From Schmidtea polychroa (Eukaryota), in contig CM097885.1 in NCBI GenBank assembly GCA_044892525.1, forward strand, positions 9,116,001 to 9,180,000: DNA of 64,000 nt, in the 5' to 3' direction. Position 1 is the first letter of the stretch. Every line of letters begins with the position of its first letter. Made by a program: the position numbers and the translations under genes. This document shows, piece after piece, positions 1-60,934 of the stretch. Under the pieces are notes generated by a model. It was given only the letters and a program-made list of their open reading frames with translations. It was not told the origin of the DNA and made no database searches.

Positions 1-1
1 C

Positions 2-202
2 TTGATTGATTTTCTTGCACGTCAAGCTTACCCTAATAACCGTAATTTTCTTATCAAAGCATTTCAAGTTGCTACGAAAATACCGCATGGATATATATTT
101 CTCGATTTCACACAACAATGTCCTGATGATATACGGATAAAAACAGATATTTTCAACCCAAAAGGTGCCATGGTTTATAAACAAAGTTCAAAACAAATTT
201 GA
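2..202 (+). pseudogene. Polinton packaging ATPase (FtsK/A32-like), C-terminal part
   Basis: LARQAYP...PHGYIFLDFTQQCPDDIRIKTDIF; the mirror copy extends upstream to GVTVIFITQNLFHQGG. Confidence 0.85.
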
Positions 203-369
203 AAACATATAAATCATGTTTTCAAAAACAAGGATATCAGGTTAAAAACAACTAAAAGTTCCACCAACAACTAGTTATACTCCATCTAAAGAACTTATTA
301 CAGAAAATATTTCTGCAATGAATCTTATTTCGAAAAATCCTAAACCTCTAACCTAAAAGTAAAACAAGT

Positions 370-693
370 AAGAAAGTAAAAGTTGTTAAAAATCATCGGA
401 GTTTCCCGTTTTTTAATACATTGTTAAAGGCACCAAGTATGAAAAGAAACAGTATTTTGCAATCATTTCCAAATTATATTGTCGATATTATACTTAAAGT
501 AGTCAAAGGCAAGATTAAAATCAGTAAATCTAAAAAGCAATTACTGAGTAAAGAAAACCTTTGTTATCATTAGTAAATAATAAAAATCGTCAACAAATGA
601 GAAAAATTATATATAAACAACAAGGGAAATTTATCGGTGCATTGATACCTTTAGCAATATCATTATTAGGTGGAATAATAGGAAGTCGATCAT
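370..693 (+). pseudogene. Small basic Polinton ORF remnant with C-terminal QxGxF-amphipathic segment
   Basis: Hand translation across frameshifts gives ...LLKAPSMKRNSILQSFP...KQQGKFIGALIPLAISLLGGIIGS; lies between ATPase and integrase. Confidence 0.45.
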
Positions 694-756
694 AAACAAT
701 GAGTGCTAATCCTTCATTACCCGACATTAAATTTAATATTAAATCTTCTTGTTGTA

Positions 757-1148
757 ATGGATAAGATTTGGACGAACCCCGAAGACGAAGCCGGTTTTGG
801 TGGAGTCGCAAAAATAAAGAAAAGAGTTCCGAATTCGAAAAAGGAAACCCAGAAGTTTGAACAGTTTGTACAGTTTGAACAAACCAATGCAGAAACGATT
901 TCCAACAAGAGCATATAAAACATGGAATAAATGATTTATGGCAAATGGATTTGATGGAGATGATACCCTATTCGAAAATTAACATTCGGTATAAATATAT
1001 TTTAACATGTATTGACGTATTCAGTTGGTTTGCTCGAGCAATACCAGTCAAGGTCAAAATCTGCAGATGAAATGTCAAAAGCTGTTAATAATTTATTTAA
1101 AAAGGACATCCTAATAACTTGCAAACGGATTTAGGTAATATTATTAAA

Positions 1149-1225
<77 letters not shown>

Positions 1226-1232
1226 GATTATG

Positions 1233-1273
<41 letters not shown>

Positions 1274-1901
1274 AGGTAAAGAATTCTACAACAGTAAAGT
1301 CAAGCAAATCCTCAATAAATTGAATATAAACCATTACTCGGTACATTATCAATACAAAGCTGCTCATGTTGAAAGATTTAAATGAACATTGAGAGATAGA
1401 TTAAAGAAATTCTTTGTACATCAAGGTAATAAAAAATGGATATTGGTTTTACCAAAAATAATAACCAGTTATAATCATTCATCACATCGAGGACTGAATA
1501 GATTAATGCCGATTGATATCACTTCAAAAACATTCTATTCTACAAAACCTGTAAAAATTACAAAACCTAAATATAAAGTAGGTGACCATGTTAGAATTAG
1601 TAAAATTAGTGCATCACCATTTATTAAACATTTCGATACAAATTAGAATGATGAAGTCTTTGTAATTTCAAAAGTAAATACTAGCCAGAGTCCTGTAATG
1701 ATTGTCATCAAAGACAATGATAATAATATTGTACAAGGAAAATTTTATGAGCAAGAATTACAAGTTATTCCTCCTCCAAAAGTATTTAGAATTCAAAAGA
1801 TATTGAAAACTAAAAAGGTCGGCAAGGATAAACAATACTATGTCAAGTGGCATGGATATCAAAACCCATCATGGATATCAAAAAAGGACCTTGTAAAGTG
1901 A
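757..1901 (+). pseudogene. Polinton retroviral-like (rve) integrase with C-terminal chromodomain, disrupted
   Basis: MDKIWTNPEDEAGFGG, WQMDL, CIDVFS, QTDLG-KEF, AHVERF, YNHSSHR, YKVGDHVRIS, GKFYEQELQ, YYVKWHGY..PSWI; several stops and frameshifts plus an (ATT)n insert. Confidence 0.95.
1139..1273 (+). repeat. (ATT)n microsatellite insert flanked by duplicated AGGTAA
   Basis: aggtaa at 1133-1138 and 1274-1279 around an (ATT)n tract. Confidence 0.95.
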
Positions 1902-2482
1902 ATTTTTATACTATTTTACCAAGCAATAGTTGCCCATTAATTCATCCAGATAATCAAGCCAGCAAATTTATGGTCAATCTCCAGAATCCGATTTCTTTAA
2001 ATAGTGACTGAGAAGTTGCACTGCAAGATTTTACATTCGTGTACAACACATTCCTATTTTATAGTCAATGTAAGATTTATTTCAAAAGATCTCATACTGC
2101 TTCCAGCTCAATTTTCAAAAACTTTGGTGTTACTTCATTGACTTTGTCTAAAATTACTGATTATAGAGAAACATATACTCAAGATTTCGAACGTGATAAT
2201 TACTGTGCTACATATATGCAAAGTATTGTTAGAAATCTGGGTTATTTAGATAAAAATTTGAATTGTGGAATAACTCTTGAAGAATTTAAAATCAAATACC
2301 CATTTTTCACATTTGTTTTAGCCCCCGAGTTTGATTTAAATCAGAGTCAACTACCACAAAACGTCAATTTACGACTGGATATAAAGTTTGCAAAGGCCAT
2401 TACAGAACTGGTACATGTTATTATATATGGAGTATTGGAAAATGAAGTTCAAATTACTGCAAATAGAACCGTGCTAGTATAA
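1898..2482 (+). pseudogene. Deletion fusion of minor capsid (penton/PX) N-terminus to major capsid (PY) C-terminus
   Basis: NFYTILPSNS..HPDNQASKFMVNLQNPISLNSD*EVALQD (penton-type start) runs into GITLEEF..YPFFTFVLAP..LRLDIKFAKA..VIIYGVLENEVQITANRTV (Polinton MCP-type end). Confidence 0.8.
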
Positions 2483-2547
2483 ATGTAAACAGAAATATAG
2501 AAATTTGTCATGGAGTTAGTGTTTTTGATACTGTTTAATTTTATTAC

Positions 2548-2895
2548 AGTAGTTCTGTTCAGGTTAATCGAATTGGAAAACAAATATTAGGAAATGAATT
2601 TTTAGGAGTTTTTCCTATCGATAAAATTGCTTATTTGAGCAATAATCAAGCCGTAATCGTCAATACTCATTCGTATCATCTTGGTGGAGAACATTGGATA
2701 GCTATATGTGTGAAACCTAGTGATATATTCGTATTCGATCCTATGGGTTTCTATTATCCTACTTTGTTGATATCTAAACTGCAAACAATTGGGAAAGCTA
2801 TTGTATATAATAAAACTATGTTTCAAAATCCATTGACTCAAACATGCGGTCAACACTGTTTGGCATGGTTGTTGTATAAAAAATTTGATGCTTAA
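2548..2895 (+). pseudogene. Adenain-like (adenoviral C5 family) cysteine protease
   Basis: FLGVFPID, IVNTH..GEHWIA, FDPMG, QNPLTQTCGQHC: catalytic H-D-Q-C present; no clear start codon. Confidence 0.9.
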
Positions 2896-3072
2896 TAAAT
2901 GTATACTGTATCATTTGTTTTTTATTTGTTGACAAAGATATATAATTAATTTAAAAAATATTATTATTATTTGTTAAATATTATTATTTTATGTTTAAAA
3001 TTATTATGTCATACTATTACATGTTCAGTGCATGCACAGTGCAAAGTAACAAAGCACTGAGTAATAAAGGCA

Positions 3073-5276
3073 TTGTATACATTGCCTAAAAATAAATATT
3101 TAGAATTTACTGATTGGAGTAAAACAGTCACTCCTCCGTTTGTTATTTACACCGACTTTGAGGCTATCTTACCTAAAGACACTCGCTACTTTCAACGTCA
3201 TCTGCTTATTTCTGCTGATATGCTTTTTATTAATAATTTTACCGGCGTAAAAATTAATAACTCGTTCACCGGTTTAGATTGCGTCGATCAATTTCTTACT
3301 GAAATTGAAATGATAGGGAAATATATTGTAACACCTTATTATTATAAACATTATCAAAAGAAAATGATAATTACAGATGAACAACAATTAATGTTTGCAA
3401 ACAGCACATCATGTTATTTGTGCAATAAGCCTTCAGTTAGCCCAGTTAAGGACAATGAATATTTTACCGGTCTATATCTTGGTGCCGCTTGTACGGTTTG
3501 TAATCTGTCAAGGCAAATTAGACATATCCTTCCTGTAGTATTTCATAATTTAAAGGGTTATGATCTGCATCATATCTTGAAATTTGGCCTTTCAAAATAT
3601 CATTCATGGAATATAAGCTGTATTCCTTTAACCAGCGAGAAATTTCTTAGTCTTTTTGCTAGGATTGACTCATTAACCGTTAAATTTATAGACTCTTATC
3701 AATTTGTAAGCGAGTTTTTAAATAATGCTGTCAAAACTTTATCATCTTTACCCTTGACCGAATCAGAATTTCAGGGTACAATAATAACTGCAAAGAGATT
3801 TTTTTCTTATGATGCCACAACTTCATTAGAGGTTTTGCATAACACTCGTCAGTTACCTCCTATTTGGAAAGATGTGACTCCCGCTGAATATGAGACAGCT
3901 CAAAGAATTTGGCTTGAAACTTCATTTACTTCACTTTTTGATTACATGATGGATACCGCTTTGCTTTACATAGATATAAATAATTTATATGGTTGGGCTT
4001 TAAGTCAACCATTACCTTGCAGTGACTTTTAATGGGTTACAGATGATAATTTATTAAATAATATAATTGTTGAGTGCACAACGGTAGATTTAGATCTACT
4101 TGATTATGGTTATACCATAGACGTGGATTTAGAAATACCGACGTCAATTCACGACAAACTGGACGATCTTCCCGTTGCCGCTGAAAAGATGTGTGTACCG
4201 GGTTCGAAAATAGAGAAGATGTTGCTTACACACAGCCCCAAGATGAACTACGTTCTTCATTGGAGGCTTCTGCAAATATTTATTAAATTAGGTGTTAAAA
4301 TATCACAAACTCATAGAGCAATTAAATTTAAACAAGATAAAATTTTCAAAAATTATATTAACACAAATACGGTGTTACGAGCAGCGCCGAGAAATAAACT
4401 TGATAAAAATTTTTATAAATTATTAAACAACAGTCTTTTACGGCAAGACAGTTGAAAATCTTAAAAAAACGTATTAATTTACGTCTGTGTAATTCTTCAC
4501 AGAAATTATTAACATTCTGTTCGAAACCAACTTTTCGAAAATCCACGAAAATAGATGATGACCTGATTTCGGTTTTATTGAGGAAGGATTGTATCTGTTT
4601 GAATAGACCTAGTTACATTGCTCAAACTGTACTAGATTTATCCAAACTCAGGATGTACCAGCAGCAGTATGAACAGTTGCAAAAATATCGCGACGAATTC
4701 AACTGCGAAATTAATATTGTTTCTGCGGACAGAGATTCCTTCTTCTTGGCAATTAAACATTGTAGTCTTGACATTCTTTTACCTGCGATGATTAGAGATC
4801 AATTATTAGATACTTCGAATTTTGACCCAAATCATCCTTTATATAGGAGGAACCTTGATTCTGTCATTGGTAAATTCAAAGACGAGAATAAAGGTTTATT
4901 ATATGAAGATTGGGTATTCTTGAGACCTAAATGTTACAGTTTAATGGGTGATGATGAAAGTATGAAGGCTAAGGGACTAACACATCAGTCGTATCTAGAT
5001 TGTTATTTAAACGATAAAATATACACAGTCCCTCAATTTAGAATAACATCGAAAAATCACCAACTTTTTGGTATTAAAAATAATAAAAGAGCCTTGACAT
5101 GTAGAGATGATAAGCGAAATTGGGTGGATAAAATTCAAAGTTTGGCATATGGCCATTATAGGGGAGGTGACACCGATATATTTATAGATTCAACAGAAGC
5201 TGTCTCAGCAGATGATCCAGATGATTTCCATGATCCAGCAGATGATAATTATTTTGGACATGATTATTTTCGATGA
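3073..5276 (+). pseudogene. polB: Protein-primed B-family DNA polymerase, family A, truncated, internally deleted, frameshifted
   Basis: YTDFE, FHNLKGYD, FIDSY, YIDINNLYG, KLLNNSL, DRDS (decayed DTDS), LRPKCY across ORFs 3073-4032, 4123-4455 and 4452-5276. Confidence 0.95.
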
Positions 5277-5570
5277 TGTGGTTAAATTATTTAATAAATG
5301 TATTGATTTTATTGCCTTGAGTTTTTTAGCAGTACCTTTGTGAACAATTTTTTATACATTATATGTGTGTGTGTGTGTAATAATAATATGTTAAAGTTTT
5401 GCCTTGAATATTTTTTAGCAGTACCTTTGTAAGCAGTACCCATAGGGGGACAGAATATCTTGTCGGATAAACTCAGACTATATATAATAATAATAATATT
5501 GCAAAGTATGTGCAAAGTATATGCAATAATTTTTTTCTGTCGACTTTAGCGTCAAAATAAGTATTTAAAA

Positions 5571-6725
5571 AGTAGGTAGTTAGTGGCTTACGGCAGCAAT
5601 AGGGGGGGGGGGGGGGTAAAAATGTTGGAAACTTTTGATTGCATAACTTTTTCCGTAGACATTTTTTGATTACATAATTGTTGCCGTAATGCCCAATGTT
5701 TTCTGGGATTTTAAATACAAAATTTTTTTTTTTTTTTTTTTTTTTTCAATAAACAAGCCAAGGATAAATATTATTTGGGTGGGTCTCCTTGGTCCTGAGA
5801 ATTTCAATAGAAAAAGGTAGTCTTCAATAAAAAAGCATGGATTTTTCACACTATAGTGAGGGGATCTTCTTGGTCATGAGAATTTCAATAGAAAAGGTGG
5901 TTTACATTAAAAAACGCATAGTAAATTTTTAAAATAAAGCAAATTATGGGTCTAAAATTTAAAAATAAAGTAAATGATGGATCTAAAAATTTAAGTAAAT
6001 CAAGGTTCAGATTTATTTTTGAAATAAAGTAAATTATGGTCTAAATAAGTAAATTATGGGCTAAGATTTTTCAATTAAAGTAAATAATGGTTCTAAAAAA
6101 TTAAATTACAGTAAATTATGGTCCAAATTTTTAAATTAAAGTAAATTATGGTTCTTAAAAATTAAATTAAAGTAAATTATGGTCAAAATTTTTGAATTAC
6201 AGTCCAAAAATTTAAATTAAAGTAAATTATGATCCAAATTTTTAAATTAAAGTAAATAATGGTTCTAAAAAATTAAATTAAAGTAAATAATGGTCCAAAT
6301 ATTTTAAATTACAGTAAATAATGGTTCTAAAAATTAAATTACAGTAAATAATGGTCAAAAATTTTAAAATTAAAGTAAATTATGGTTCTAAAAATTAAAT
6401 TAAAGTTAATTAAGGTCCAAATTTTAAAATTAAATAATCAATGGTAAAAAAAATTTAAATTAAAGTTAAATAAGTAAATTAAAGTAATAATTTTTAAATA
6501 AGTAAATTAAAGTAATGTAATAAGTAAATTAAAGTAAGATTTTTAAATTTATTAACAAAAATAGAAGGTGTTTGAGAATTGAAATTTTTTAATGGAAATT
6601 TTAATGAATTATTTTTTAAGTAATTTTTAATAGAAATTTTTATGAATAATTTTCAATGGTAATTTTTAATGGAAATTTTAATAGAATAATTTTTAAGATA
6701 ATTTTTAATGAAAATTTTTATGAAA
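5571..6725 (+). repeat. Polinton family B terminal inverted repeat (5'-AGTAGGTAG end, G-tract, ~30-bp subterminal tandem array)
   Basis: Homologous to the TSD-flanked ends at 59993/62674 and 42434/59320; array of aaagtaaattatggttctaaaaaattaaatt at ~5930-6560. Confidence 0.9.
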
Positions 6726-6726
6726 T

Positions 6727-6794
<68 letters not shown>

Positions 6795-6981
6795 TAATAT
6801 TAATAATATATCAACCAAATACTATACAACACATAAAAAATTAACTAAACACATAAAAATAACTAGGCACATAACAAAACATATAAACATTAACTAAACA
6901 CATAAAAATGAACTAGACACATAACAAACATAAAAATTTACCAAATAACAAATGTAAAGATATAAAATTTATTCAATAAAA

Positions 6982-9900
6982 TTAGTCCTCATCGGACAAA
7001 ATAACGTCATCGATATCGATGTCATCTTCTCCAAAATCTTCATTTAATTCTTCCTCATCTTCTCCATTTTTCTCCAACATTTTCTGAAACATTTTCTGCA
7101 ACAATTTCTCCAACATTTTCTCCAATATTTAATTCACTTAATCTTACATGCCCATATGCAAGACTAGTATTTTTCCCCACCCAAACCCTTTTGTCATCTT
7201 TGTTAGTTAGTGCTATTTTTGTGTTTTTAATTGTAAAAATTTGATGATTTTTGCTTGTTATTTTAGTCTGAGGAACCGAAAAAATCTGGTTAGTGTTATA
7301 ACAATCCAGGTATGACTGATGTTTTATGTCACTACCTTTCAATGTTACACCTTTAGCCTTTTTTGTTTCCTCATCACCCAACAAACTATAACATTTAGGT
7401 CTAAGAAAAACCCGCTCCTTATATTTAAGACCTTTATTCTCGTCTTTGAACTTTCCAATGACTGAATCAAGGTTCTTACTATATAAGGAATGACAACTAT
7501 TGTAATTGGAAGTATCCAATAAATTATCTCGAACCATTGCAGGTAAAAGAACCTCAAGTTTGCAGTTAATGACTTCGAGGAAAAAAGAATCTGTATCACC
7601 TGCAACGATATTAATTTTACAATTAAACTCATTGCGAAATGATTCCAGATCCTTATATTGCAATTCATACATTCTAAGTTTAGATAGATCAAGTACAGAT
7701 TGACCAATGTAACTCGGTCTATCTAAACATATAGAATCGGAATTCAATAGTGCTGCAATTAAATTATCTGCTATTTTAATAGATTTTTTAAAAGTCGGTT
7801 TTGACGAATATTTAACTAATTTACCGGCAGTTGTACAAAGACGAAGATTCATTCTTCTCTTTAAATTTTCAACTGTTTTGCCGTATAAACTATTATTTAG
7901 CAATTTATAATAATTTTTATCTAAGCTATTTACGCTTTTTGATCTTAATTCGGTATTTGTATCTATATATTTTTTAAAAATTGGTGATTGCTTAAATCTT
8001 ACACCCCTATTTACACGTGTTACTTTAACACCAAGTTCCAAATATAATTTTAATAATCTCCAATGAATAACATAATTAGATTTTGGAAGATGAGTTAATA
8101 ATAATTTTTCAACCTTAGACCCAGCAGGTTTCATTTTTTCAGCAGCTACAGGGAAATCATCCAACTTATCATGAAGCTCAGAAGGAATTACAAGATCAAC
8201 TTCAAGTGTGTATCCATAAGACAAAGATTCAAGATTTAAATTCCTACATTCATCCATTATTTTATCAAATCCATCAAGAACCCAACAAAATTCGCCACAA
8301 GGTAATGATTGACTTAAAGCCCAGCCATAAAGATTATTAATATCTATATATAGTAACTCAGTGTTCTCGTCGGTTTTTACGTAATGCTTATTCACAAAAG
8401 TAAGACCGCCTCTTATTCCACCCTCATAAAAGCTAAACATTTCGTTTTCAGTTATGAGTTCAATTGGTTCATTTAAAGACATTAATGCAGAAGACCAAGA
8501 CATGCCTGGAATTCCGAAATAATTCAATGGTTCCAATCTATTGTGAGCAATGGATTTCAACCGAAACTGATGAAAGAAATCAGCCAAAAGAAAACAATCA
8601 AGTTTTAGGTAGATCATCATATAATCTAATAAAGTTACGCAATTAGTTTCTACCCAAATCTCCTGAGCTTTTTCATACTCAAGCTCAGTGACACCCTCCC
8701 AGATTGGTGGTAATTCATAAGTAGTTTGGAGAATATCTAAAGAAGTGGCGAAATTATAAGGGAAGATTCCTTTTTCACTTACTATGGTGCCAGAAAAAGC
8801 AGAATTAGTAAAAGGCAAAGAATTCAAAGTTTTGACTGCTTTAGCCAAAGAATCATTGACAAATTGATACGAATCAATGAATCTTAGGCTAATTTTACCT
8901 AAATGAGCAATCAAAGATATAAATTTTTCCGTAGTTATTGGGATGCACCCTAAATTCCAATTTTTAAATTTATTTAATCCATATTTAAGTATATGGTGCA
9001 TATCGTATCCCTTCAAGTTGTGAAATACGATAGGCAAAATTTTATTTATTTTCCTATTTACGTTACATGTGCTACAAGCTGCACCCATGTATTTCCCCGT
9101 AAAATGATCGTGATCTCTAACAGGATCGACGATAGATTTCATACAAAGATAACAAACAGATGCACTAACAAATTGACGTTGTTCAATTTTTGTTAATTTC
9201 ATCATAGGTTTCCTACCCATTTTATAATAAAAAGGAAGAACCTTATTTAATGCTATATCCTCTATAGCACTTAAAAAACTCTCGACGCAATCTAAACCTA
9301 TGAACTGCTGATAAGATTTAGATCCGTCAAAGTTATTTACAAGTAAAAGACCAGCAGATATTGGCATGTGTCGTTGGAAATGATCATTATCAGAAGGTAA
9401 AATAGCCTCAAAATCTGCATAAACTACAAAAGGAGGAGTTACTGTTTTCGACCAGTCAGTAAACTGTAATAATTTATTTTGAGGGAAGGTGTAAAGAGTT
9501 GTTCCTAATTGATTACGTTTACATAATATTTCATGTTTTTCTAGCGCGTGTTTATTATTAAACCCATTCAAACACCGATGGCACCATAATGAACGTATGC
9601 GTGTAGGACAACTAGTGTTGATATGACAATTCATTAACTTATTTAAATTACTTATAGCAACGTAATGGAAATTGTTTCCTTTATTTAATAATAGTAAATT
9701 AATTACAGTTCCATTTAAAACTTTGGAACGATGTATAATATCTAAATGTGGGTGTTTTAATACGTAATTATCTATTAATTGTTTGTTATTGTCATAAGAA
9801 AAAACGTTAATTATTAAGCCTGGATTTTTGGCCTCGAATTTTCTAATATCTTTTAATTTCATGGGTAAGTCCAATGGATTATATATTAATTCAGATAAAT

Positions 9901-10760
9901 TATAACTGGATGTCCTATTTCTAGCATAACTACTAACCTCATCATATTTTAAAATAGCTAAAATGCTATATAAAAAACATGAATCATCGGTGTTTTTTAT
10001 ATTAATTAAACAATATTTATTTTTTAGATAAGTAGGTGTTTCAATGAAACTCCTACCACTTAATCTACTTAGCCTACTTATCTTTGTTATGGTGAAGTGA
10101 ATTTCTGTTATTTTTTTTTATGATCCAGCTACTTCCTAACTCTGTGATATTACTTATTTTCTCGTTTAGTTCCCTAATGCCTTCGTCAAAAAATGATGCA
10201 GTTAAAGGCTTTGCATAATTTGAGATATTATTAACCTTTATTTCCCCGTCTTTTTCAAATTCGATTGTTATTCCGAATTGAATTTTGACGGAGCCTAATT
10301 CGTTAATAATATCTCGTAATTTTTTTATTAGTTGTTCAGGAAATATTATTTCTTTTATATTTAAGTCGCTTGTATTTAAGCTTAATATTTGATGGGTACC
10401 TCTTAGATCTTTTTGTATTATTGGAACATTTCCACCTATTTGTATTATATTTAATCCATCCCAAGAGTCAAGGGAAATATTATCTAATCCGACCTGGGAT
10501 TCAACAACCAATCCATCATGGGATTCGACAACCAATCCATCATTGGATTCCACAAAAGGCAATCCGACCTGGGATTCAAAAGAAGAAGTATCTAATTTAA
10601 TTTTTTAATTTTTATTATTTTTTTCTATAGTTGAGGGTCTTTTAAAAACACTATCTTTTTTAAAATTAAACCTATCTAAATGATTTTTATGTTTATTATA
10701 AAAAACGCTATATGTTACGGGGTCACTAGTCTTACATACGGGACATATTTTAAAACACAT
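6982..10760 (-). pseudogene. polB: Protein-primed DNA polymerase B, family B, near intact (939-aa open core 7055..9874)
   Basis: Exo motifs YADFE, FHNLKGYD, YLKLD; Pol motifs YIDINNLYG, KLLNNSLYGK, GDTDS; CxxC..DHDH..CxxCN insert; one in-frame stop and two +1 A-run frameshifts separate the N- and C-termini. Confidence 0.95.
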
Positions 10761-11194
10761 TTTGACGCTAAAGTTGACTTATTTAACATTTTCATAATAA
10801 TTTAATAAAAATAATGTGATGAACCCACAAAGTAATATCATTTTTCATCAAATTGCAAAACAGTAATAACGTTTTCATAAAATTGTAACAAAGTAATAAC
10901 ATATTTCAGATAAATTTTCAACAGTTGTAAAATATTTAAGCAAATTGTAACAAGATTAGAAAATATTACAACAAAGTAGTAACATATTTCAGAAAATTTC
11001 AACAAATTTGTAAAATATTTATCAAATTGTAACTAAAATAATAAAAATATTGCAACAAAGTAATAAAATAATAATGGTAATTAAGACAAATCAATACATT
11101 ATTTCGAAGACGGACAACAAATTAAAAAGAATATTGTAACTAAAATAATAAAAATATTGCAACAAAGTAATAAAATAATACAACATTTTAAACT

Positions 11195-11620
11195 CTAGAT
11201 CAATCCATTTTATAGAAAATTAAATTTTATCTATATAATATATGAATAAATATCCAAGGAAATTACGTTAACGTATAATAAATACAAATTTATCGTAAAA
11301 ACATGTGTGTATTACACACAAAACAAGATACATAATTTCTAATCAATCCATTTTATAGAAAATTAAATTTTATCTATATATTATATGAATAAAATCCTAA
11401 GAAAATTACGTTAACTGTATGAAAAATACAAATTTATCATAAAAACATGTGTGTATTACACACAACATACGAGACATAATTTTTAATCAAGCTATTTTAT
11501 AGAAAATTAAATTTTATCTATATAATATATGAATAAAAATCCAAGAAAATTACGTTAACCGCGCGAAAAACTACAAATTTATTGTAAAAACATGTGTGCA
11601 TTACACACAAAGCATCAAAC
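11195..11620. repeat. Three ~145-bp tandem repeats with internal palindromes (mirror at ~12805-13228)
   Basis: Repeated ttttatagaaaattaaattttatctatata...ttacgttaac...aaaaacatgtgtgtattacacaca. Confidence 0.9.
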
Positions 11621-11730
11621 TGAAATTGTAATTGCGCGATGTTGTAGAGAATTAAATTCTGCCTATACATGGTTACACTTAAATCTCGATCAGACATGTG
11701 AAAAGAGACATAAAAGATAAAAAACAGTAG

Positions 11731-12692
11731 AGTAGTATGATGTGGGCTCCCCCGGCCATGTCCCCTCCAGATCACATATACCCCCTCCCCCCCCCCCGGG
11801 AAAAAATTTTATTTTTTTTTTAGAACGATGCCTAATATTTTTAGAACTATTACGTAATCAATGCCTAATATTTTTAGAACGAAGCCTAATATTTTTAGAA
11901 CTATTACGTAATTTTTTTTAAATTAAGTGATCCAGCGGGGACCTACTTTTTTTCTTCCCAAAAGTAATGTTCCCGCCAACAAATTTTATTAACCGATACC
12001 TCATCTTCAAGCTCAGTCCAAGACCTTTCGAATGAGCTATAGGTATCTTATATATCTTTAATAGTTTTAATGTTATTAACAATTGATGACCACCATCTTT
12101 TCAACGTTAAATTATTATTATTTTTCAAAATATTATTAAGTGATCCAGCGGGGACCTACTTTTTTTCATCCCAAAAATTAATGTTCCTGCCAACAGATTT
12201 TATTGACCGATAGCTTATTTTAAAGCTCTGTGCAAGAACTTTCTAATGAGATATAGATTTTTATCATACGATGACTCATCACATTTTTAGAACAAAGACA
12301 ATGACTCATCACATTTTTAGAATGATGTCTAATATTTTAGAATGATGCCTAATATTTTTAGAATGATTACGTCATACTTTTAGAACGAAGCCTAATATTT
12401 TTAGAATGATGCCTAATATTTTTAGAACTATTACGTAATCAATGCCTAATATTTTTAGAACTATTACGTAATTTTTTTAAATTAATTGGTCCAGCGGTGA
12501 CCTACTTTTTTTCTTCCCAAAAGTAATGTTTCCATCATCCGAATTTATTAATCAAACACTTATTTTAAAGCCCAGTGCAAAATCTATATACTGATATATA
12601 AATATTATTATTAACATTATTTTACACACGGGGGGGAGGGGGTATATGTGGCCGAGCGGGCTCCTGGCCGGGCGGGCCCACATCATACTACT
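11731..12692. mobile_element. Putative ~960-bp non-autonomous element with AGTAGT...ACTACT ends forming the palindrome centre
   Basis: agtagtatgatgtgggc / gcccacatcatactact ends; imperfect inner IR (cacatataccccctcccc / ggggagggggtatatgtg); internal direct repeats; similar end at ~63625-63639. Confidence 0.55.
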
Positions 12693-13662
12693 CTACTGTT
12701 TTTTATCTTTTATGTCTCTTTTCACATGTCTGATCGAGATTTAAGTGTAACCATGTATAGGCAGAATTTAATTCTCTACAACATGGCGCAATTACAATTT
12801 CAGTTTGATGCTTTGTGTGTAATGCACACATGTTTTTACAATAAATTTGTAGTTTTTCGCGCGGTTAACGTAATTTTCTTGGATTTTTATTCATATATTA
12901 TATAGATAAAATTTAATTTTCTATAAAATAGCTTGATTAAAAATTATGTCTCGTATGTTGTGTGTAATACACACATGTTTTTATGATAAATTTGTATTTT
13001 TCATACAGTTAACGTAATTTTCTTAGGATTTTATTCATATAATATATAGATAAAATTTAATTTTCTATAAAATGGATTGATTAGAAATTATGTATCTTGT
13101 TTTGTGTGTAATACACACATGTTTTTACGATAAATTTGTATTTATTATACGTTAACGTAATTTCCTTGGATATTTATTCATATATTATATAGATAAAATT
13201 TAATTTTCTATAAAATGGATTGATCTAGAGTTTAAAATGTTGTATTATTTTATTACTTTGTTGCAATATTTTTATTATTTTAGTTACAATATTCTTTTTA
13301 ATTTGTTGTCCGTCTTCGAAATAATGTATTGATTTGTCTTAATTACCATTATTATTTTATTACTTTGTTGCAATATTTTTATTATTTTAGTTACAATTTG
13401 ATAAATATTTTACAAATTTGTTGAAATTTTCTGAAATATGTTACTACTTTGTTGTAATATTTTCTAATCTTGTTACAATTTGCTTAAATATTTTACAACT
13501 GTTGAAAATTTATCTGAAATATGTTATTACTTTGTTACAATTTTATGAAAACGTTATTACTGTTTTGCAATTTGATGAAAAATGATATTACTTTGTGGGT
13601 TCATCACATTATTTTTATTAAATTATTATGAAAATGTTAAATAAGTCAACTTTAGCGTCAAA

Positions 13663-16600
13663 ATGTGTTTTAAAATATGTCCCGTATGTAAGACTAGTGA
13701 CCCCGTAACATATAGCGTTTTTTATAATAAACATAAAAATCATTTAGATAGGTTTAATTTTAAAAAAGATAGTGTTTTTAAAAGACCCTCAACTATAGAA
13801 AAAAATAATAAAAATTAAAAAATTAAATTAGATACTTCTTCTTTTGAATCCCAGGTCGGATTGCCTTTTGTGGAATCCAATGATGGATTGGTTGTCGAAT
13901 CCCATGATGGATTGGTTGTTGAATCCCAGGTCGGATTAGATAATATTTCCCTTGACTCTTGGGATGGATTAAATATAATACAAATAGGTGGAAATGTTCC
14001 AATAATACAAAAAGATCTAAGAGGTACCCATCAAATATTAAGCTTAAATACAAGCGACTTAAATATAAAAGAAATAATATTTCCTGAACAACTAATAAAA
14101 AAATTACGAGATATTATTAACGAATTAGGCTCCGTCAAAATTCAATTCGGAATAACAATCGAATTTGAAAAAGACGGGGAAATAAAGGTTAATAATATCT
14201 CAAATTATGCAAAGCCTTTAACTGCATCATTTTTTGACGAAGGCATTAGGGAACTAAACGAGAAAATAAGTAATATCACAGAGTTAGGAAGTAGCTGGAT
14301 CATAAAAAAAAATAACAGAAATTCACTTCACCATAACAAAGATAAGTAGGCTAAGTAGATTAAGTGGTAGGAGTTTCATTGAAACACCTACTTATCTAAA
14401 ACATAAATATTGTTTAATTAATATAAAAAACACCGATGATTCATGTTTTTTATATAGCATTTTAGCTATTTTAAAATATGATGAGGTTAGTAGTTATGCT
14501 AGAAATAGGACATCCAGTTATAATTTATCTGAATTAATATATAATCCATTGGACTTACCCATGAAATTAAAAGATATTAGAAAATTCGAGGCCAAAAATC
14601 CAGGCTTAATAATTAACGTTTTTTCTTATGACAATAACAAACAATTAATAGATAATTACGTATTAAAACACCCACATTTAGATATTATACATCGTTCCAA
14701 AGTTTTAAATGGAACTGTAATTAATTTACTATTATTAAATAAAGGAAACAATTTCCATTACGTTGCTATAAGTAATTTAAATAAGTTAATGAATTGTCAT
14801 ATCAACACTAGTTGTCCTACACGCATACGTTCATTATGGTGCCATCGGTGTTTGAATGGGTTTAATAATAAACACGCGCTAGAAAAACATGAAATATTAT
14901 GTAAACGTAATCAATTAGGAACAACTCTTTACACCTTCCCTCAAAATAAATTATTACAGTTTACTGACTGGTCGAAAACAGTAACTCCTCCTTTTGTAGT
15001 TTATGCAGATTTTGAGGCTATTTTACCTTCTGATAATGATCATTTCCAACGACACATGCCAATATCTGCTGGTCTTTTACTTGTAAATAACTTTGACGGA
15101 TCTAAATCTTATCAGCAGTTCATAGGTTTAGATTGCGTCGAGAGTTTTTTAAGTGCTATAGAGGATATAGCATTAAATAAGGTTCTTCCTTTTTATTATA
15201 AAATGGGTAGGAAACCTATGATGAAATTAACAAAAATTGAACAACGTCAATTTGTTAGTGCATCTGTTTGTTATCTTTGTATGAAATCTATCGTCGATCC
15301 TGTTAGAGATCACGATCATTTTACGGGGAAATACATGGGTGCAGCTTGTAGCACATGTAACGTAAATAGGAAAATAAATAAAATTTTGCCTATCGTATTT
15401 CACAACTTGAAGGGATACGATATGCACCATATACTTAAATATGGATTAAATAAATTTAAAAATTGGAATTTAGGGTGCATCCCAATAACTACGGAAAAAT
15501 TTATATCTTTGATTGCTCATTTAGGTAAAATTAGCCTAAGATTCATTGATTCGTATCAATTTGTCAATGATTCTTTGGCTAAAGCAGTCAAAACTTTGAA
15601 TTCTTTGCCTTTTACTAATTCTGCTTTTTCTGGCACCATAGTAAGTGAAAAAGGAATCTTCCCTTATAATTTCGCCACTTCTTTAGATATTCTCCAAACT
15701 ACTTATGAATTACCACCAATCTGGGAGGGTGTCACTGAGCTTGAGTATGAAAAAGCTCAGGAGATTTGGGTAGAAACTAATTGCGTAACTTTATTAGATT
15801 ATATGATGATCTACCTAAAACTTGATTGTTTTCTTTTGGCTGATTTCTTTCATCAGTTTCGGTTGAAATCCATTGCTCACAATAGATTGGAACCATTGAA
15901 TTATTTCGGAATTCCAGGCATGTCTTGGTCTTCTGCATTAATGTCTTTAAATGAACCAATTGAACTCATAACTGAAAACGAAATGTTTAGCTTTTATGAG
16001 GGTGGAATAAGAGGCGGTCTTACTTTTGTGAATAAGCATTACGTAAAAACCGACGAGAACACTGAGTTACTATATATAGATATTAATAATCTTTATGGCT
16101 GGGCTTTAAGTCAATCATTACCTTGTGGCGAATTTTGTTGGGTTCTTGATGGATTTGATAAAATAATGGATGAATGTAGGAATTTAAATCTTGAATCTTT
16201 GTCTTATGGATACACACTTGAAGTTGATCTTGTAATTCCTTCTGAGCTTCATGATAAGTTGGATGATTTCCCTGTAGCTGCTGAAAAAATGAAACCTGCT
16301 GGGTCTAAGGTTGAAAAATTATTATTAACTCATCTTCCAAAATCTAATTATGTTATTCATTGGAGATTATTAAAATTATATTTGGAACTTGGTGTTAAAG
16401 TAACACGTGTAAATAGGGGTGTAAGATTTAAGCAATCACCAATTTTTAAAAAATATATAGATACAAATACCGAATTAAGATCAAAAAGCGTAAATAGCTT
16501 AGATAAAAATTATTATAAATTGCTAAATAATAGTTTATACGGCAAAACAGTTGAAAATTTAAAGAGAAGAATGAATCTTCGTCTTTGTACAACTGCCGGT

Positions 16601-17441
16601 AAATTAGTTAAATATTCGTCAAAACCGACTTTTAAAAAATCTATTAAAATAGCAGATAATTTAATTGCAGCACTATTGAATTCCGATTCTATATGTTTAG
16701 ATAGACCGAGTTACATTGGTCAATCTGTACTTGATCTATCTAAACTTAGAATGTATGAATTGCAATATAAGGATCTGGAATCATTTCGCAATGAGTTTAA
16801 TTGTAAAATTAATATCGTTGCAGGTGATACAGATTCTTTTTTCCTCGAAGTCATTAACTGCAAACTTGAGGTTCTTTTACCTGCAATGGTTCGAGATAAT
16901 TTATTGGATACTTCCAATTACAATAGTTGTCATTCCTTATATAGTAAGAACCTTGATTCAGTCATTGGAAAGTTCAAAGACGAGAATAAAGGTCTTAAAT
17001 ATAAGGAGCGGGTTTTTCTTAGACCTAAATGTTATAGTTTGTTGGGTGATGAGGAAACAAAAAAGGCTAAAGGTGTAACATTGAAAGGTAGTGACATAAA
17101 ACATCAGTCATACCTGGATTGTTATAACACTAACCAGATTTTTTCGGTTCCTCAGACTAAAATAACAAGCAAAAATCATCAAATTTTTACAATTAAAAAC
17201 ACAAAAATAGCACTAACTAACAAAGATGACAAAAGGGTTTGGGTGGGGAAAAATACTAGTCTTGCATATGGGCATGTAAGATTAAGTGAATTAAATATTG
17301 GAGAAAATGTTGGAGAAATTGTTGCAGAAAATGTTTCAGAAAATGTTGGAGAAAAATGGAGAAGATGAGGAAGAATTAAATGAAGATTTTGGAGAAGATG
17401 ACATCGATATCGATGACGTTATTTTGTCCGATGAGGACTAA
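13663..17441 (+). pseudogene. polB: Protein-primed DNA polymerase B, family B, mirror copy (939-aa open core 14549..17368)
   Basis: Same 939-aa translation as the left copy; ATG at 13663, TAA at 13816, A9 frameshift near 14304-14312, frameshift near 17355 hiding an acidic tail ending at TAA 17441. Confidence 0.95.
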
Positions 17442-17628
17442 TTTTATTGAATAAATTTTATATCTTTACATTTGTTATTTGGTAAATTTTTATGTTTGTT
17501 ATGTGTCTAGTTCATTTTTATGTGTTTAGTTAATGTTTATATGTTTTGTTATGTGCCTAGTTATTTTTATGTGTTTAGTTAATTTTTTATGTGTTGTATA
17601 GTATTTGGTTGATATATTATTAATATTA

Positions 17629-17693
<65 letters not shown>

Positions 17694-17694
17694 A

Positions 17695-18844
17695 TTTCAT
17701 AAAAATTTTCATTAAAAATTATCTTAAAAATTATTCTATTAAAATTTCCATTAAAAATTACCATTGAAAATTATTCATAAAAATTTCTATTAAAAATTAC
17801 TTAAAAAATAATTCATTAAAATTTCCATTAAAAAATTTCAATTCTCAAACACCTTCTATTTTTGTTAATAAATTTAAAAATCTTACTTTAATTTACTTAT
17901 TACATTACTTTAATTTACTTATTTAAAAATTATTACTTTAATTTACTTATTTAACTTTAATTTAAATTTTTTTTACCATTGATTATTTAATTTTAAAATT
18001 TGGACCTTAATTAACTTTAATTTAATTTTTAGAACCATAATTTACTTTAATTTTAAAATTTTTGACCATTATTTACTGTAATTTAATTTTTAGAACCATT
18101 ATTTACTGTAATTTAAAATATTTGGACCATTATTTACTTTAATTTAATTTTTTAGAACCATTATTTACTTTAATTTAAAAATTTGGATCATAATTTACTT
18201 TAATTTAAATTTTTGGACTGTAATTCAAAAATTTTGACCATAATTTACTTTAATTTAATTTTTAAGAACCATAATTTACTTTAATTTAAAAATTTGGACC
18301 ATAATTTACTGTAATTTAATTTTTTAGAACCATTATTTACTTTAATTGAAAAATCTTAGCCCATAATTTACTTATTTAGACCATAATTTACTTTATTTCA
18401 AAAATAAATCTGAACCTTGATTTACTTAAATTTTTAGATCCATCATTTACTTTATTTTTAAATTTTAGACCCATAATTTGCTTTATTTTAAAAATTTACT
18501 ATGCGTTTTTTAATGTAAACCACCTTTTCTATTGAAATTCTCATGACCAAGAAGATCCCCTCACTATAGTGTGAAAAATCCATGCTTTTTTATTGAAGAC
18601 TACCTTTTTCTATTGAAATTCTCAGGACCAAGGAGACCCACCCAAATAATATTTATCCTTGGCTTGTTTATTGAAAAAAAAAAAAAAAAAAAAAAAATTT
18701 TGTATTTAAAATCCCAGAAAACATTGGGCATTACGGCAACAATTATGTAATCAAAAAATGTCTACGGAAAAAGTTATGCAATCAAAAGTTTGCAACATTT
18801 TTACCCCCCCCCCTATTGCTGCCGTAAGCCACTAACTACCTACT
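17695..18844 (-). repeat. Polinton family B TIR, mirror copy
   Basis: Reverse complement of 5571-6725, ends ctaactacctact. Confidence 0.9.
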
Positions 18845-19138
18845 TTTTAAATACTTATTTTGACGCTAAAGTCGACAGAAAAAAATTATTGCATATACTT
18901 TGCACATACTTTGCAATATTATTATTATTATATATAGTCTGAGTTTATCCGACAAGATATTCTGTCCCCCTATGGGTACTGCTTACAAAGGTACTGCTAA
19001 AAAATATTCAAGGCAAAACTTTAACATATTATTATTACACACACACACACATATAATGTATAAAAAATTGTTCACAAAGGTACTGCTAAAAAACTCAAGG
19101 CAATAAAATCAATACATTTATTAAATAATTTAACCACA

Positions 19139-21342
19139 TCATCGAAAATAATCATGTCCAAAATAATTATCATCTGCTGGATCATGGAAATCATCTGGAT
19201 CATCTGCTGAGACAGCTTCTGTTGAATCTATAAATATATCGGTGTCACCTCCCCTATAATGGCCATATGCCAAACTTTGAATTTTATCCACCCAATTTCG
19301 CTTATCATCTCTACATGTCAAGGCTCTTTTATTATTTTTAATACCAAAAAGTTGGTGATTTTTCGATGTTATTCTAAATTGAGGGACTGTGTATATTTTA
19401 TCGTTTAAATAACAATCTAGATACGACTGATGTGTTAGTCCCTTAGCCTTCATACTTTCATCATCACCCATTAAACTGTAACATTTAGGTCTCAAGAATA
19501 CCCAATCTTCATATAATAAACCTTTATTCTCGTCTTTGAATTTACCAATGACAGAATCAAGGTTCCTCCTATATAAAGGATGATTTGGGTCAAAATTCGA
19601 AGTATCTAATAATTGATCTCTAATCATCGCAGGTAAAAGAATGTCAAGACTACAATGTTTAATTGCCAAGAAGAAGGAATCTCTGTCCGCAGAAACAATA
19701 TTAATTTCGCAGTTGAATTCGTCGCGATATTTTTGCAACTGTTCATACTGCTGCTGGTACATCCTGAGTTTGGATAAATCTAGTACAGTTTGAGCAATGT
19801 AACTAGGTCTATTCAAACAGATACAATCCTTCCTCAATAAAACCGAAATCAGGTCATCATCTATTTTCGTGGATTTTCGAAAAGTTGGTTTCGAACAGAA
19901 TGTTAATAATTTCTGTGAAGAATTACACAGACGTAAATTAATACGTTTTTTTAAGATTTTCAACTGTCTTGCCGTAAAAGACTGTTGTTTAATAATTTAT
20001 AAAAATTTTTATCAAGTTTATTTCTCGGCGCTGCTCGTAACACCGTATTTGTGTTAATATAATTTTTGAAAATTTTATCTTGTTTAAATTTAATTGCTCT
20101 ATGAGTTTGTGATATTTTAACACCTAATTTAATAAATATTTGCAGAAGCCTCCAATGAAGAACGTAGTTCATCTTGGGGCTGTGTGTAAGCAACATCTTC
20201 TCTATTTTCGAACCCGGTACACACATCTTTTCAGCGGCAACGGGAAGATCGTCCAGTTTGTCGTGAATTGACGTCGGTATTTCTAAATCCACGTCTATGG
20301 TATAACCATAATCAAGTAGATCTAAATCTACCGTTGTGCACTCAACAATTATATTATTTAATAAATTATCATCTGTAACCCATTAAAAGTCACTGCAAGG
20401 TAATGGTTGACTTAAAGCCCAACCATATAAATTATTTATATCTATGTAAAGCAAAGCGGTATCCATCATGTAATCAAAAAGTGAAGTAAATGAAGTTTCA
20501 AGCCAAATTCTTTGAGCTGTCTCATATTCAGCGGGAGTCACATCTTTCCAAATAGGAGGTAACTGACGAGTGTTATGCAAAACCTCTAATGAAGTTGTGG
20601 CATCATAAGAAAAAAATCTCTTTGCAGTTATTATTGTACCCTGAAATTCTGATTCGGTCAAGGGTAAAGATGATAAAGTTTTGACAGCATTATTTAAAAA
20701 CTCGCTTACAAATTGATAAGAGTCTATAAATTTAACGGTTAATGAGTCAATCCTAGCAAAAAGACTAAGAAATTTCTCGCTGGTTAAAGGAATACAGCTT
20801 ATATTCCATGAATGATATTTTGAAAGGCCAAATTTCAAGATATGATGCAGATCATAACCCTTTAAATTATGAAATACTACAGGAAGGATATGTCTAATTT
20901 GCCTTGACAGATTACAAACCGTACAAGCGGCACCAAGATATAGACCGGTAAAATATTCATTGTCCTTAACTGGGCTAACTGAAGGCTTATTGCACAAATA
21001 ACATGATGTGCTGTTTGCAAACATTAATTGTTGTTCATCTGTAATTATCATTTTCTTTTGATAATGTTTATAATAATAAGGTGTTACAATATATTTCCCT
21101 ATCATTTCAATTTCAGTAAGAAATTGATCGACGCAATCTAAACCGGTGAACGAGTTATTAATTTTTACGCCGGTAAAATTATTAATAAAAAGCATATCAG
21201 CAGAAATAAGCAGATGACGTTGAAAGTAGCGAGTGTCTTTAGGTAAGATAGCCTCAAAGTCGGTGTAAATAACAAACGGAGGAGTGACTGTTTTACTCCA
21301 ATCAGTAAATTCTAAATATTTATTTTTAGGCAATGTATACAA
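19139..21342 (-). pseudogene. polB: pPolB family A remnant, mirror copy
   Basis: ORFs identical to 3073-5276. Confidence 0.95.
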
Positions 21343-21519
21343 TGCCTTTATTACTCAGTGCTTTGTTACTTTGCACTGTGCATGCACTGAACATGTAATA
21401 GTATGACATAATAATTTTAAACATAAAATAATAATATTTAACAAATAATAATAATATTTTTTAAATTAATTATATATCTTTGTCAACAAATAAAAAACAA
21501 ATGATACAGTATACATTTA

Positions 21520-21867
21520 TTAAGCATCAAATTTTTTATACAACAACCATGCCAAACAGTGTTGACCGCATGTTTGAGTCAATGGATTTTGAAACATAGT
21601 TTTATTATATACAATAGCTTTCCCAATTGTTTGCAGTTTAGATATCAACAAAGTAGGATAATAGAAACCCATAGGATCGAATACGAATATATCACTAGGT
21701 TTCACACATATAGCTATCCAATGTTCTCCACCAAGATGATACGAATGAGTATTGACGATTACGGCTTGATTATTGCTCAAATAAGCAATTTTATCGATAG
21801 GAAAAACTCCTAAAAATTCATTTCCTAATATTTGTTTTCCAATTCGATTAACCTGAACAGAACTACT
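21520..21867 (-). pseudogene. Adenain-like cysteine protease, mirror copy
   Basis: Translation identical to 2635-2895. Confidence 0.9.
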
Positions 21868-21932
21868 GTAATAAAATTAAACAGTATCAAAAACACTAAC
21901 TCCATGACAAATTTCTATATTTCTGTTTACAT

Positions 21933-22517
21933 TTATACTAGCACGGTTCTATTTGCAGTAATTTGAACTTCATTTTCCAATACTCCATATATAATAACAT
22001 GTACCAGTTCTGTAATGGCCTTTGCAAACTTTATATCCAGTCGTAAATTGACGTTTTGTGGTAGTTGACTCTGATTTAAATCAAACTCGGGGGCTAAAAC
22101 AAATGTGAAAAATGGGTATTTGATTTTAAATTCTTCAAGAGTTATTCCACAATTCAAATTTTTATCTAAATAACCCAGATTTCTAACAATACTTTGCATA
22201 TATGTAGCACAGTAATTATCACGTTCGAAATCTTGAGTATATGTTTCTCTATAATCAGTAATTTTAGACAAAGTCAATGAAGTAACACCAAAGTTTTTGA
22301 AAATTGAGCTGGAAGCAGTATGAGATCTTTTGAAATAAATCTTACATTGACTATAAAATAGGAATGTGTTGTACACGAATGTAAAATCTTGCAGTGCAAC
22401 TTCTCAGTCACTATTTAAAGAAATCGGATTCTGGAGATTGACCATAAATTTGCTGGCTTGATTATCTGGATGAATTAATGGGCAACTATTGCTTGGTAAA
22501 ATAGTATAAAAATTCAC
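21933..22517 (-). pseudogene. Penton/major capsid deletion fusion, mirror copy
   Basis: Translation identical to 2039-2482. Confidence 0.8.
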
Positions 22518-23141
22518 TTTACAAGGTCCTTTTTTGATATCCATGATGGGTTTTGATATCCATGCCACTTGACATAGTATTGTTTATCCTTGCCGACCTT
22601 TTTAGTTTTCAATATCTTTTGAATTCTAAATACTTTTGGAGGAGGAATAACTTGTAATTCTTGCTCATAAAATTTTCCTTGTACAATATTATTATCATTG
22701 TCTTTGATGACAATCATTACAGGACTCTGGCTAGTATTTACTTTTGAAATTACAAAGACTTCATCATTCTAATTTGTATCGAAATGTTTAATAAATGGTG
22801 ATGCACTAATTTTACTAATTCTAACATGGTCACCTACTTTATATTTAGGTTTTGTAATTTTTACAGGTTTTGTAGAATAGAATGTTTTTGAAGTGATATC
22901 AATCGGCATTAATCTATTCAGTCCTCGATGTGATGAATGATTATAACTGGTTATTATTTTTGGTAAAACCAATATCCATTTTTTATTACCTTGATGTACA
23001 AAGAATTTCTTTAATCTATCTCTCAATGTTCATTTAAATCTTTCAACATGAGCAGCTTTGTATTGATAATGTACCGAGTAATGGTTTATATTCAATTTAT
23101 TGAGGATTTGCTTGACTTTACTGTTGTAGAATTCTTTACCT

Positions 23142-23191
<50 letters not shown>

Positions 23192-23198
23192 CATAATC

Positions 23199-23272
<74 letters not shown>

Positions 23273-23664
23273 TTTAATAATATTACCTAAATCCGTTTGC
23301 AAGTTATTAGGATGTCCTTTTTAAATAAATTATTAACAGCTTTTGACATTTCATCTGCAGATTTTGACCTTGACTGGTATTGCTCGAGCAAACCAACTGA
23401 ATACGTCAATACATGTTAAAATATATTTATACCGAATGTTAATTTTCGAATAGGGTATCATCTCCATCAAATCCATTTGCCATAAATCATTTATTCCATG
23501 TTTTATATGCTCTTGTTGGAAATCGTTTCTGCATTGGTTTGTTCAAACTGTACAAACTGTTCAAACTTCTGGGTTTCCTTTTTCGAATTCGGAACTCTTT
23601 TCTTTATTTTTGCGACTCCACCAAAACCGGCTTCGTCTTCGGGGTTCGTCCAAATCTTATCCAT
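22514..23664 (-). pseudogene. Polinton chromo-integrase remnant, mirror copy
   Basis: Mirror of 757-1901; the (ATT)n insert is 6 nt longer. Confidence 0.95.
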
Positions 23665-24218
23665 TACAACAAGAAGATTTAATATTAAATTTAATGTCGG
23701 GTAATGAAGGATTAGCACTCATTGTTTATGATCGACTTCCTATTATTCCACCTAATAATGATATTGCTAAAGGTATCAATGCACCGATAAATTTCCCTTG
23801 TTGTTTATATATAATTTTTCTCATTTGTTGACGATTTTTATTATTTACTAATGATAACAAAGGTTTTCTTTACTCAGTAATTGCTTTTTAGATTTACTGA
23901 TTTTAATCTTGCCTTTGACTACTTTAAGTATAATATCGACAATATAATTTGGAAATGATTGCAAAATACTGTTTCTTTTCATACTTGGTGCCTTTAACAA
24001 TGTATTAAAAAACGGGAAACTCCGATGATTTTTAACAACTTTTACTTTCTTACTTGTTTTACTTTTAGGTTAGAGGTTTAGGATTTTTCGAAATAAGATT
24101 CATTGCAGAAATATTTTCTGTAATAAGTTCTTTAGATGGAGTATAACTAGTTGTTGGTGGAACTTTTAGTTGTTTTTAACCTGATATCCTTGTTTTTGAA
24201 AACATGATTTATATGTTT

Positions 24219-24480
24219 TCAAATTTGTTTTGAACTTTGTTTATAAACCATGGCACCTTTTGGGTTGAAAATATCTGTTTTTATCCGTATATCATCAGGA
24301 CATTGTTGTGTGAAATCGAGAAATATATATCCATGCGGTATTTTCGTAGCAACTTGAAATGCTTTGATAAGAAAATTACGGTTATTAGGGTAAGCTTGAC
24401 GTGCAAGAAAATCAATCAAGTGTTCGATGTGCACCACCTTGATGAAATAGATTTTGTGTTATGAAAATAACTGTTACACC
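24219..24480 (-). pseudogene. Polinton packaging ATPase remnant
   Basis: GVTVIFITQNLFHQGGAHRT then, after a deletion/frameshift, IDFLARQAYP... Confidence 0.88.
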
Positions 24481-27330: not shown

Positions 27331-27344
27331 TGAGAATCCTAATA

Positions 27345-31753: not shown

Positions 31754-31825
<72 letters not shown>

Positions 31826-45473: not shown

Positions 45474-45539
<66 letters not shown>

Positions 45540-55646: not shown

Positions 55647-55712
<66 letters not shown>

Positions 55713-60877: not shown

Positions 60878-60934
<57 letters not shown>

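Follow-up and report, generated by a model that had tools for sequence, protein, structure and literature searches.

Organization of the locus

The 64,000-nucleotide stretch of Schmidtea polychroa contig CM097885.1 analyzed here (assembly GCA_044892525.1, positions 9,116,001 to 9,180,000; hereafter the window) contains a palindromic unit of Polinton origin, in which two divergent copies of a gene for a protein-primed DNA polymerase B (pPolB) lie between inverted termini of a single Polinton family, here called family B (Table 1). An earlier note on this DNA had delimited the unit by the family-B ends at 5571 and 18844, recognized no gene between them other than the two pPolB copies, and in particular no integrase or capsid gene, and suggested that on excision it would be a linear replicon with its own polymerase. 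Our analysis bears out this layout, as well as the caveat that the flanks are inverted (TTAAAA/unit/TTTTAA): they are mirrored, and no direct 6-bp target-site duplication (TSD) is found at the unit. The replicon reading is not supported for this copy, as in both pPolB genes codon 52 is a stop and the reading frame is lost further on, and the unit ends are not the bounds of the palindrome, as the duplication runs past both of them. On the reading favoured below, the unit would be half of a dead Polinton together with its mirror image.

Family-B ends start with AGTAGGTAGT, form terminal inverted repeats and carry an AG/AGT-type motif that is close to, but not an exact copy of, the (AGT)2 Maverick motif given in PMC8097293. 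Exact copies of the terminal 17-mer lie at 5571-5587 (+) and 18828-18844 (-), and the two ends of the unit differ by one substitution in 1473 columns. Nine matches of the end motif occur in the window, against a mean of 0.04 in shuffled sequences; related ends bearing this 17-base motif also delimit two nearby elements, U2 (42434/59320) and U3 (59993/62674), and three more matches with three mismatches fall within a tandem array. Three matches of the motif in viral contigs were dismissed as chance, since beyond the motif they do not resemble the window, and they contain no pPolB.

Searches for further genes in the unit were negative: blastx of 11700-13660 and 17370-19150 against 998 open reading frames (ORFs) of related loci gave no match, none of the six short ORFs scanned from the unit's centre matched Pfam, and 11600-18900 had no match in Rfam. 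No rve integrase was found inside the unit, the only integrase remnant being in the flanking element of a second Polinton family (family A), and matches to ATPase, protease and major or minor capsid genes were likewise absent inside it, their remnants lying in the family-A arms. The 32 bases directly outside the unit end (5539-5570) resemble the region where pPolB starts (13645-13675) at 87.5%; a related gene start or promoter box may have been the site of insertion.

Table 1. Features of the palindromic unit and its surroundings (window coordinates)
Feature	Position	Strand	Remarks
Whole visible palindrome	1..24420		Arms 1-11793 and 12630-24420; cut by the window's left edge
Unit as bounded in the earlier note	5571..18844		13,274 bp; family-B end, pPolB, central element, pPolB, family-B end
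Left family-B terminus with subterminal tandem arrays	5571..6800	+	AGTAGG..., G-run
Right family-B terminus with subterminal arrays	17615..18844	-	
pPolB pseudogene, left copy	7055..10760	-	Same two breaks as right copy
pPolB pseudogene, right copy	13663..17368	+	ATG 13663, stop 13816-13818, frame break near 14304-14311, main ORF 14306-17368
Non-coding tandem arrays upstream of pPolB	12698..13662		144-, 83- and 31-bp units; mirrored at 10761-11725
Central element (family C), Polinton-like ends	11726..12697		Three ~150-bp units plus short tandem units inside
Left inverted repeat of central element	11726..11794	+	
Right inverted repeat of central element	12630..12697	-	68 columns, with 10 mismatches to the left repeat
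Decayed second Polinton (family A)	18845..24860	-	Mirrored at 1-5570
Family-A pPolB, 5'-truncated	19139-21375		Mirror in left arm at 3040..5276 (+)
Family-A protease	21520-21876		
Family-A probable major capsid piece	21939-22301		
Family-A integrase	22517-23497		
Family-A A32-like ATPase piece	24237-24480		
U2, 16.9-kb palindromic element	42434..59320		Related ends, no pPolB; TATATA on both sides, flanks otherwise unrelated
U3, family-B deletion derivative	59993..62674		3' pPolB piece; direct 6-bp TSD TATATG

The polymerase genes

Each arm contains a 1020-aa ORF (7055-10117, - strand; 14306-17368, + strand), so placed that the two copies point outward, and its identity as a protein-primed PolB is established by PF03175 (E=4.8e-31). 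The left and right genes differ by one substitution in 3709 bp. A 1242-aa homolog with 60% identity aligns in one frame from residue 14 (at 13669) to residue 226 and in another frame from residue 226 onward; in both copies codon 52 is an in-frame stop, and the frame break lies in an A-run before the main ORF. The 176-aa middle ORF lacks a methionine, while the first methionine of the main ORF is residue 86, behind the invariant Cys47. Introns were rejected as the cause, homologs being collinear across both breaks, as was the natural split between terminal protein and polymerase, given that no methionine precedes residue 86. Judged by motif against the description of the polinton terminal-protein domain in 10.1101/2024.03.18.585575, the frame break probably sits in the last strand of that domain, which is needed for priming, and not at the natural split. 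Because of the stop and the frame break in both copies the unit encodes no working pPolB: the gene is dead in both arms, and no whole polymerase is specified.

These lesions bear directly on the possibility that the unit in its present state works as a replicon like a linear plasmid, with two origins and a polymerase of its own. We regard this as very improbable, even though the ends of the unit are near-identical and the main ORF retains those exonuclease and palm residues that do not vary in an alignment of 25 proteins. Cytoplasmic linear plasmids are considered descendants of polintons that lost their capsid module (10.1101/2024.03.18.585575), and plasmids of the pGKL1 type, as presented in the same source, share with the unit inverted ends, a polinton-type pPolB and the lack of a capsid module. 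However, they are free replicons with an intact polymerase fused to its terminal protein, whereas the unit is chromosomal and has a broken pPolB in both copies.

Extent of the palindrome and differences between its arms

The mirror continues past the unit through 1-5570 and 18845-24420 as far as the window edge, giving a palindrome of at least 24.4 kb with 99.76% identical arms (1-11793 against reversed 12630-24420) and a divergence of 0.03-0.10% in four arm segments. The outer 5570 bp of the arms contain no substitution outside one ATT/ATG microsatellite; within the unit the arms differ by three substitutions in 6177 bp (5628, 10021/14402 and 11638/12785) and by run lengths. At 14402 the left arm matches 99.9-100% of the depth of contigs assembled from sequencing runs, which places the derived base in the right arm, while at 5628 it is the right arm that agrees with both ends of U3, so that the left arm carries the derived base. 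All three substitutions are transversions, and two of them are C/G, a rare class among family variants; they would stem from errors in the consensus or, alternatively, from damaged single-stranded DNA.

A mirror made in the tube or in the computer, by an amplification chimera at the inner repeats or by a misjoin, appears to us unlikely, although several observations are in keeping with it. The arm differences are few and partly like consensus errors (homopolymer and microsatellite lengths, three transversions of which two are C/G, the C/G class being seen at 5 to 7 of the approximately 200-270 variable sites per run), no inverted junction is seen in the contigs compared, among the 15 listed of 257 joints, and whole-genome amplification is described as putting false inverted duplications into long-read assemblies (PMC6218980). 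Yet each arm has a derived base of its own (14402 and 5628), which is less expected of one molecule read twice, and U2 and U3 have been assembled nearby with distinct flanks.

The contigs used for comparison come from four of 17 runs, with differing bases tabulated for 40 of 323 variable sites; they are too short to span the centre, and their depths are a rough sign of abundance only, as summed depth is not copy number. At 15335 and 17009, 97-100% of contig depth reads another base in all four runs, and at 14878 this figure is 91-100%, again in four of four, yet both arms agree at each of these positions; only two arm-specific bases were seen in the 4.7-kb stretch compared with the contigs. 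Contigs of other copies also differ at the break sites in all four runs; the share of depth that differs is 66-99% for the stop and, for the A-run, 18-24%, figures that do not translate into a share of whole copies. As family-rare bases and both gene breaks are common to the two arms, the arms were made alike after the copy had drifted from its family, by duplication or conversion.

The central element

The centre of the palindrome is occupied by a 972-bp element whose 68-bp inverted repeats are 85% identical (14.7% diverged), have a GC content of 64-67% and pair as the closing stem of the folded strand (z = -11). It starts and ends with the same 20-mer, which is absent elsewhere in the window, and its ends contain AGTAGT, that is, the (AGT)2 end motif reported for vertebrate Mavericks (PMC8097293). 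The ends are built as those of family B are, with AGTAG followed by a GC-rich stretch and then a run of C or G. By a pattern defined after the ends had been seen, AGTAG with a G/C run of at least 7 is found at 10 of the 99 AGTAG sites in the window, corresponding to eight places, namely six family-B ends and the two inner ends of this element. The exact inner end motif had no match in viral contigs. In having Polinton-type inverted ends and no genes (no Pfam match), the element is of the type of a non-autonomous Polinton derivative; in this window its ends are found only at this copy, and its flanks (AAAAAC/GTTTTT) are mirrored whichever end is chosen, without a TSD. Its interior units have relatives of 73-81% identity at 39065-39605. 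A single-copy centre of ~0.8 kb (800 bp), present once at the locus, separates the ungapped arms, and the arms remain near-perfectly identical only as far as 11748, the proposed fold-back point, which lies 22 bases into the inverted repeat.

The central element is abundant in the contigs: all 30 bins of 11740-17420 are covered by them in each of the four runs, with centre and pPolB depths of the same order; in run X15, for example, depth is 121-209 at the five centre sites listed and 92-317 at the five 5' pPolB sites listed. No loose end was seen at the border of the central element among the 24 listed of 3038.

Comparison with U2, U3 and related loci

Direct 6-bp TSDs accompany U3 and U2, and none is found at the unit or the inner element. 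The pPolB piece of U3 is 6.5% diverged from the unit. In U2 the inner arms differ by 0.24% and the outer ends by 12.7%, as if the inner arms had been made alike later. Beyond the window, a search with the single protein returned one weak match in metagenome contigs and none in viral contigs, while an alignment-based search recovered 5 viral and 36 genome-collection loci, all with at most 36% identity. The 36 genome-collection loci (L010-L045, most rows) are filed under metagenome-assembled prokaryote genomes and are probably eukaryotic or viral contigs that were binned there. An integrase homolog lies near pPolB in 12 of the 14 related loci of at least 8 kb, which as distant relatives tell little of family B. 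One distant relative, L017, has its pPolB head-to-head with a block of ATPase, integrase, capsid and protease genes.

These comparisons bear on a second explanation, which we consider possible but on balance somewhat unlikely: the unit could be one member of a Polinton derivative that recurs, is palindromic and carries the polymerase alone. Such a copy-back genome, with the inverted-repeat element as its native centre, would be moved in trans by the integrase of an intact helper, have its arms equalised in each copying round and, in the present case, have inserted into family A. The mirrored flank would then be secondary, produced either when the 6-kb arms subsequently triggered a fold-back or when an assembler exited by the wrong arm. 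Consistent with this, centre and pPolB have depths of the same order in four of four runs, U2 shows related ends on a long palindrome with a 6-bp duplication and unrelated flanks, and the substitutions in the arms (3 in 6177 bp) compare with none in 5570 bp of flank outside the microsatellite. However, this locus has no direct TSD, and the family-rare bases common to both arms would need a rare donor lineage or arm-to-arm conversion. Such a derivative also predicts a centre at about half the depth of pPolB, which the depths do not show, with the proviso that summed depth is not copy number. Further, an inverted second pPolB is seen at 0 of 40 loci with a pPolB match, these being distant relatives (at most 36% identity) of which only 14 are at least 8 kb long. 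A broader form of the proposal, which we rate as rather unlikely, is that family B has spawned a mobile class lacking capsid and integrase, with the palindromic order end-pPolB-core-pPolB-end, of which this copy would be a dead member, the small Polinton-ended core serving as a putative built-in turning site of copying.

Proposed origin of the palindrome

We favour a one-off fold-back of a dead Polinton half, primed by the inner repeats of the nested small element, because the mirror extends past the unit ends, the lesions are common to both arms and the arm identity breaks off within the inverted repeat; we hold this with about as much doubt as confidence. A family-B Polinton, to judge from its sharp end inside family A, would have inserted into an older, decayed family-A Polinton. 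It carried, about 1 kb upstream of its pPolB, the small element with diverged 68-bp inverted ends seen today, and the pPolB broke as the copy aged. Single-stranded DNA over the small element, arising from a resected break or from strand-displacement copying, could then have let the two ends pair, and synthesis from the paired end would copy the family-B arm and the family-A flank back on themselves. Replication would leave a palindrome with the interior of the small element as its unique centre, and the rest of family B (integrase, capsid side and second end) would be lost. Template switching by pPolB may offer an additional route. Since pPolB in L017 stands head-to-head with the ATPase-integrase-capsid-protease block, the fold lies where a block of this type would begin, and the mirror would have replaced that block.

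Fold-back duplications provide a precedent. Those described in humans by Hermetz et al. (PMC3907307) have a single-copy spacer of 766-70,466 bp with inverted homology at its edges, in the form of repeats of 82-95% identity at 3 of 21 junctions, and in yeast spaced inverted repeats diverged by up to 25% fold back in single-stranded DNA (Ait Saada et al., PMC10164571). The present palindrome is like the duplications in these accounts in its near-identical arms, its ~0.8-kb single-copy spacer and the diverged inverted repeats of a mobile element at the spacer edges, with the difference that here the priming repeats would be the 68-bp ends of one small Polinton-like element. That the whole palindrome is a single family-A composite, excised and reinserted, finds no support, as no AGTAG-plus-run end lies between 18845 and 42433.

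Several points weigh against a one-off fold-back. All three arm substitutions fall in the unit while the flank is free of them, a distribution with P=0.145 if there was a single event, which weakly favours two events, and the left arm exits the window, so that the outer end of the palindrome lies outside it. Because the centre is covered at depths like those of pPolB in all four runs, the central element may belong permanently to family B, perhaps within a palindrome that the whole family has. A long palindromic element with related ends, U2, inserts as a unit. No strand-changing joint is present among the 15 listed of 257 joints, in contigs too short to span the centre, so that this absence carries no weight in either direction. 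At 68 bp, the repeat falls short of the Alu repeats used in yeast, which are about 300 bp long. A 13-kb palindromic element might also mislead an assembler into mirroring the flank, and amplification may create false inverted duplications (PMC6218980).

The flanking family-A Polinton and neighbouring elements

The family-A element retains pieces of protease, integrase and chromodomain; its protease, integrase and A32-like ATPase match L017, through which the fragments were named, and the 446-aa probable capsid protein of L017 was matched as well. PHROGs named none of the six family-A fragments, and the capsid assignment comes from Atlas, where the lead is weak: PF21738 occurs in 30% of the top cluster, and the recognition score is low. 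The family-A pPolB has 68% nucleotide identity to that of family B. Family A keeps the gene order of L017 as far as the protease, after which comes a 5'-truncated, internally deleted pPolB in the same direction, without counterpart in L017; family A, too, may have arisen by copy-back.

Directly upstream of the family-A ATPase and on the same strand lies a TRAF-like gene with a MATH domain and a coiled coil (24955-26070), either a host gene or cargo. A motif of 55-70 bases is common to the family-A flank and U2-type elements at 87-91% (5417-5490, 28256-28311, 31246-31301, 45966-46020, 49114-49182 and their mirrors). The U2 spacer contains a short insert at 50290-51132, which we take to be hAT-like, with GTATATAGC repeated at both sides and a 125-aa ORF without a Pfam match, and a truncated, older palindromic element 70-84% like U2 is present at 27340-33775. 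The window as a whole is AT-rich, with Tc1/mariner, TRAF/MATH and retrotransposon pieces, including a Tc1/mariner transposase remnant (DDE_3) at 40322-41158, a make-up in keeping with animal DNA.

Relationship to known systems and implications

In its PF03175 pPolB, its inverted repeats starting with AGT and its size within the range of 13-25 kb, the unit is like the Polintons/Mavericks described in PMC8097293 and 10.1101/2023.08.22.554363, and 6-bp duplications are left by its family members U2 and U3. It differs from them in lacking integrase, ATPase, protease and capsid genes and a direct TSD, in having two mirrored, broken pPolB copies, and in that its arms take up almost the whole unit. 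The C. elegans eri-6/7 locus, in the account of 10.1101/2024.01.15.575659, likewise combines clustered Polinton remnants with inverted ends and local rearrangement, and pPolB with a terminal inverted repeat but without integrase is given there for 10 loci; however, the rearrangements in that account are inversions between copies, whereas the unit is an inverted duplication with a unique centre. The 52-base terminal palindromes of 10.64898/2026.07.28.741278, as presented there, are a different feature. No title or abstract on palindromic polymerase-only Polintons was found in the literature, subscription papers and repeat databases being outside reach, so that absence from print is not established. 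In copy-back, or snap-back, defective viral genomes one end is duplicated in mirror image and replaces the other half. The unit is alike in its mirrored end, but its mirror extends into the flank and it has no integration footprint, so that formation on a free genome would be hypothetical.

If the palindrome arose by a one-off fold-back, it is a clear natural example of a large inverted duplication primed by the ends of a small Polinton-type element, and it cautions against taking every polymerase between two ends for a replicon. Should the layout recur with TSDs, Polintons would be seen to produce copy-back genomes that turn at a defined point, giving a direct handle on the proposed model of Polinton replication and on the origin of linear plasmids. 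Were the unit a dead member of a mobile palindromic class, intact members would supply polymerase to gene-less palindromic satellites and, as a living intermediate, would link Polintons with linear plasmids.

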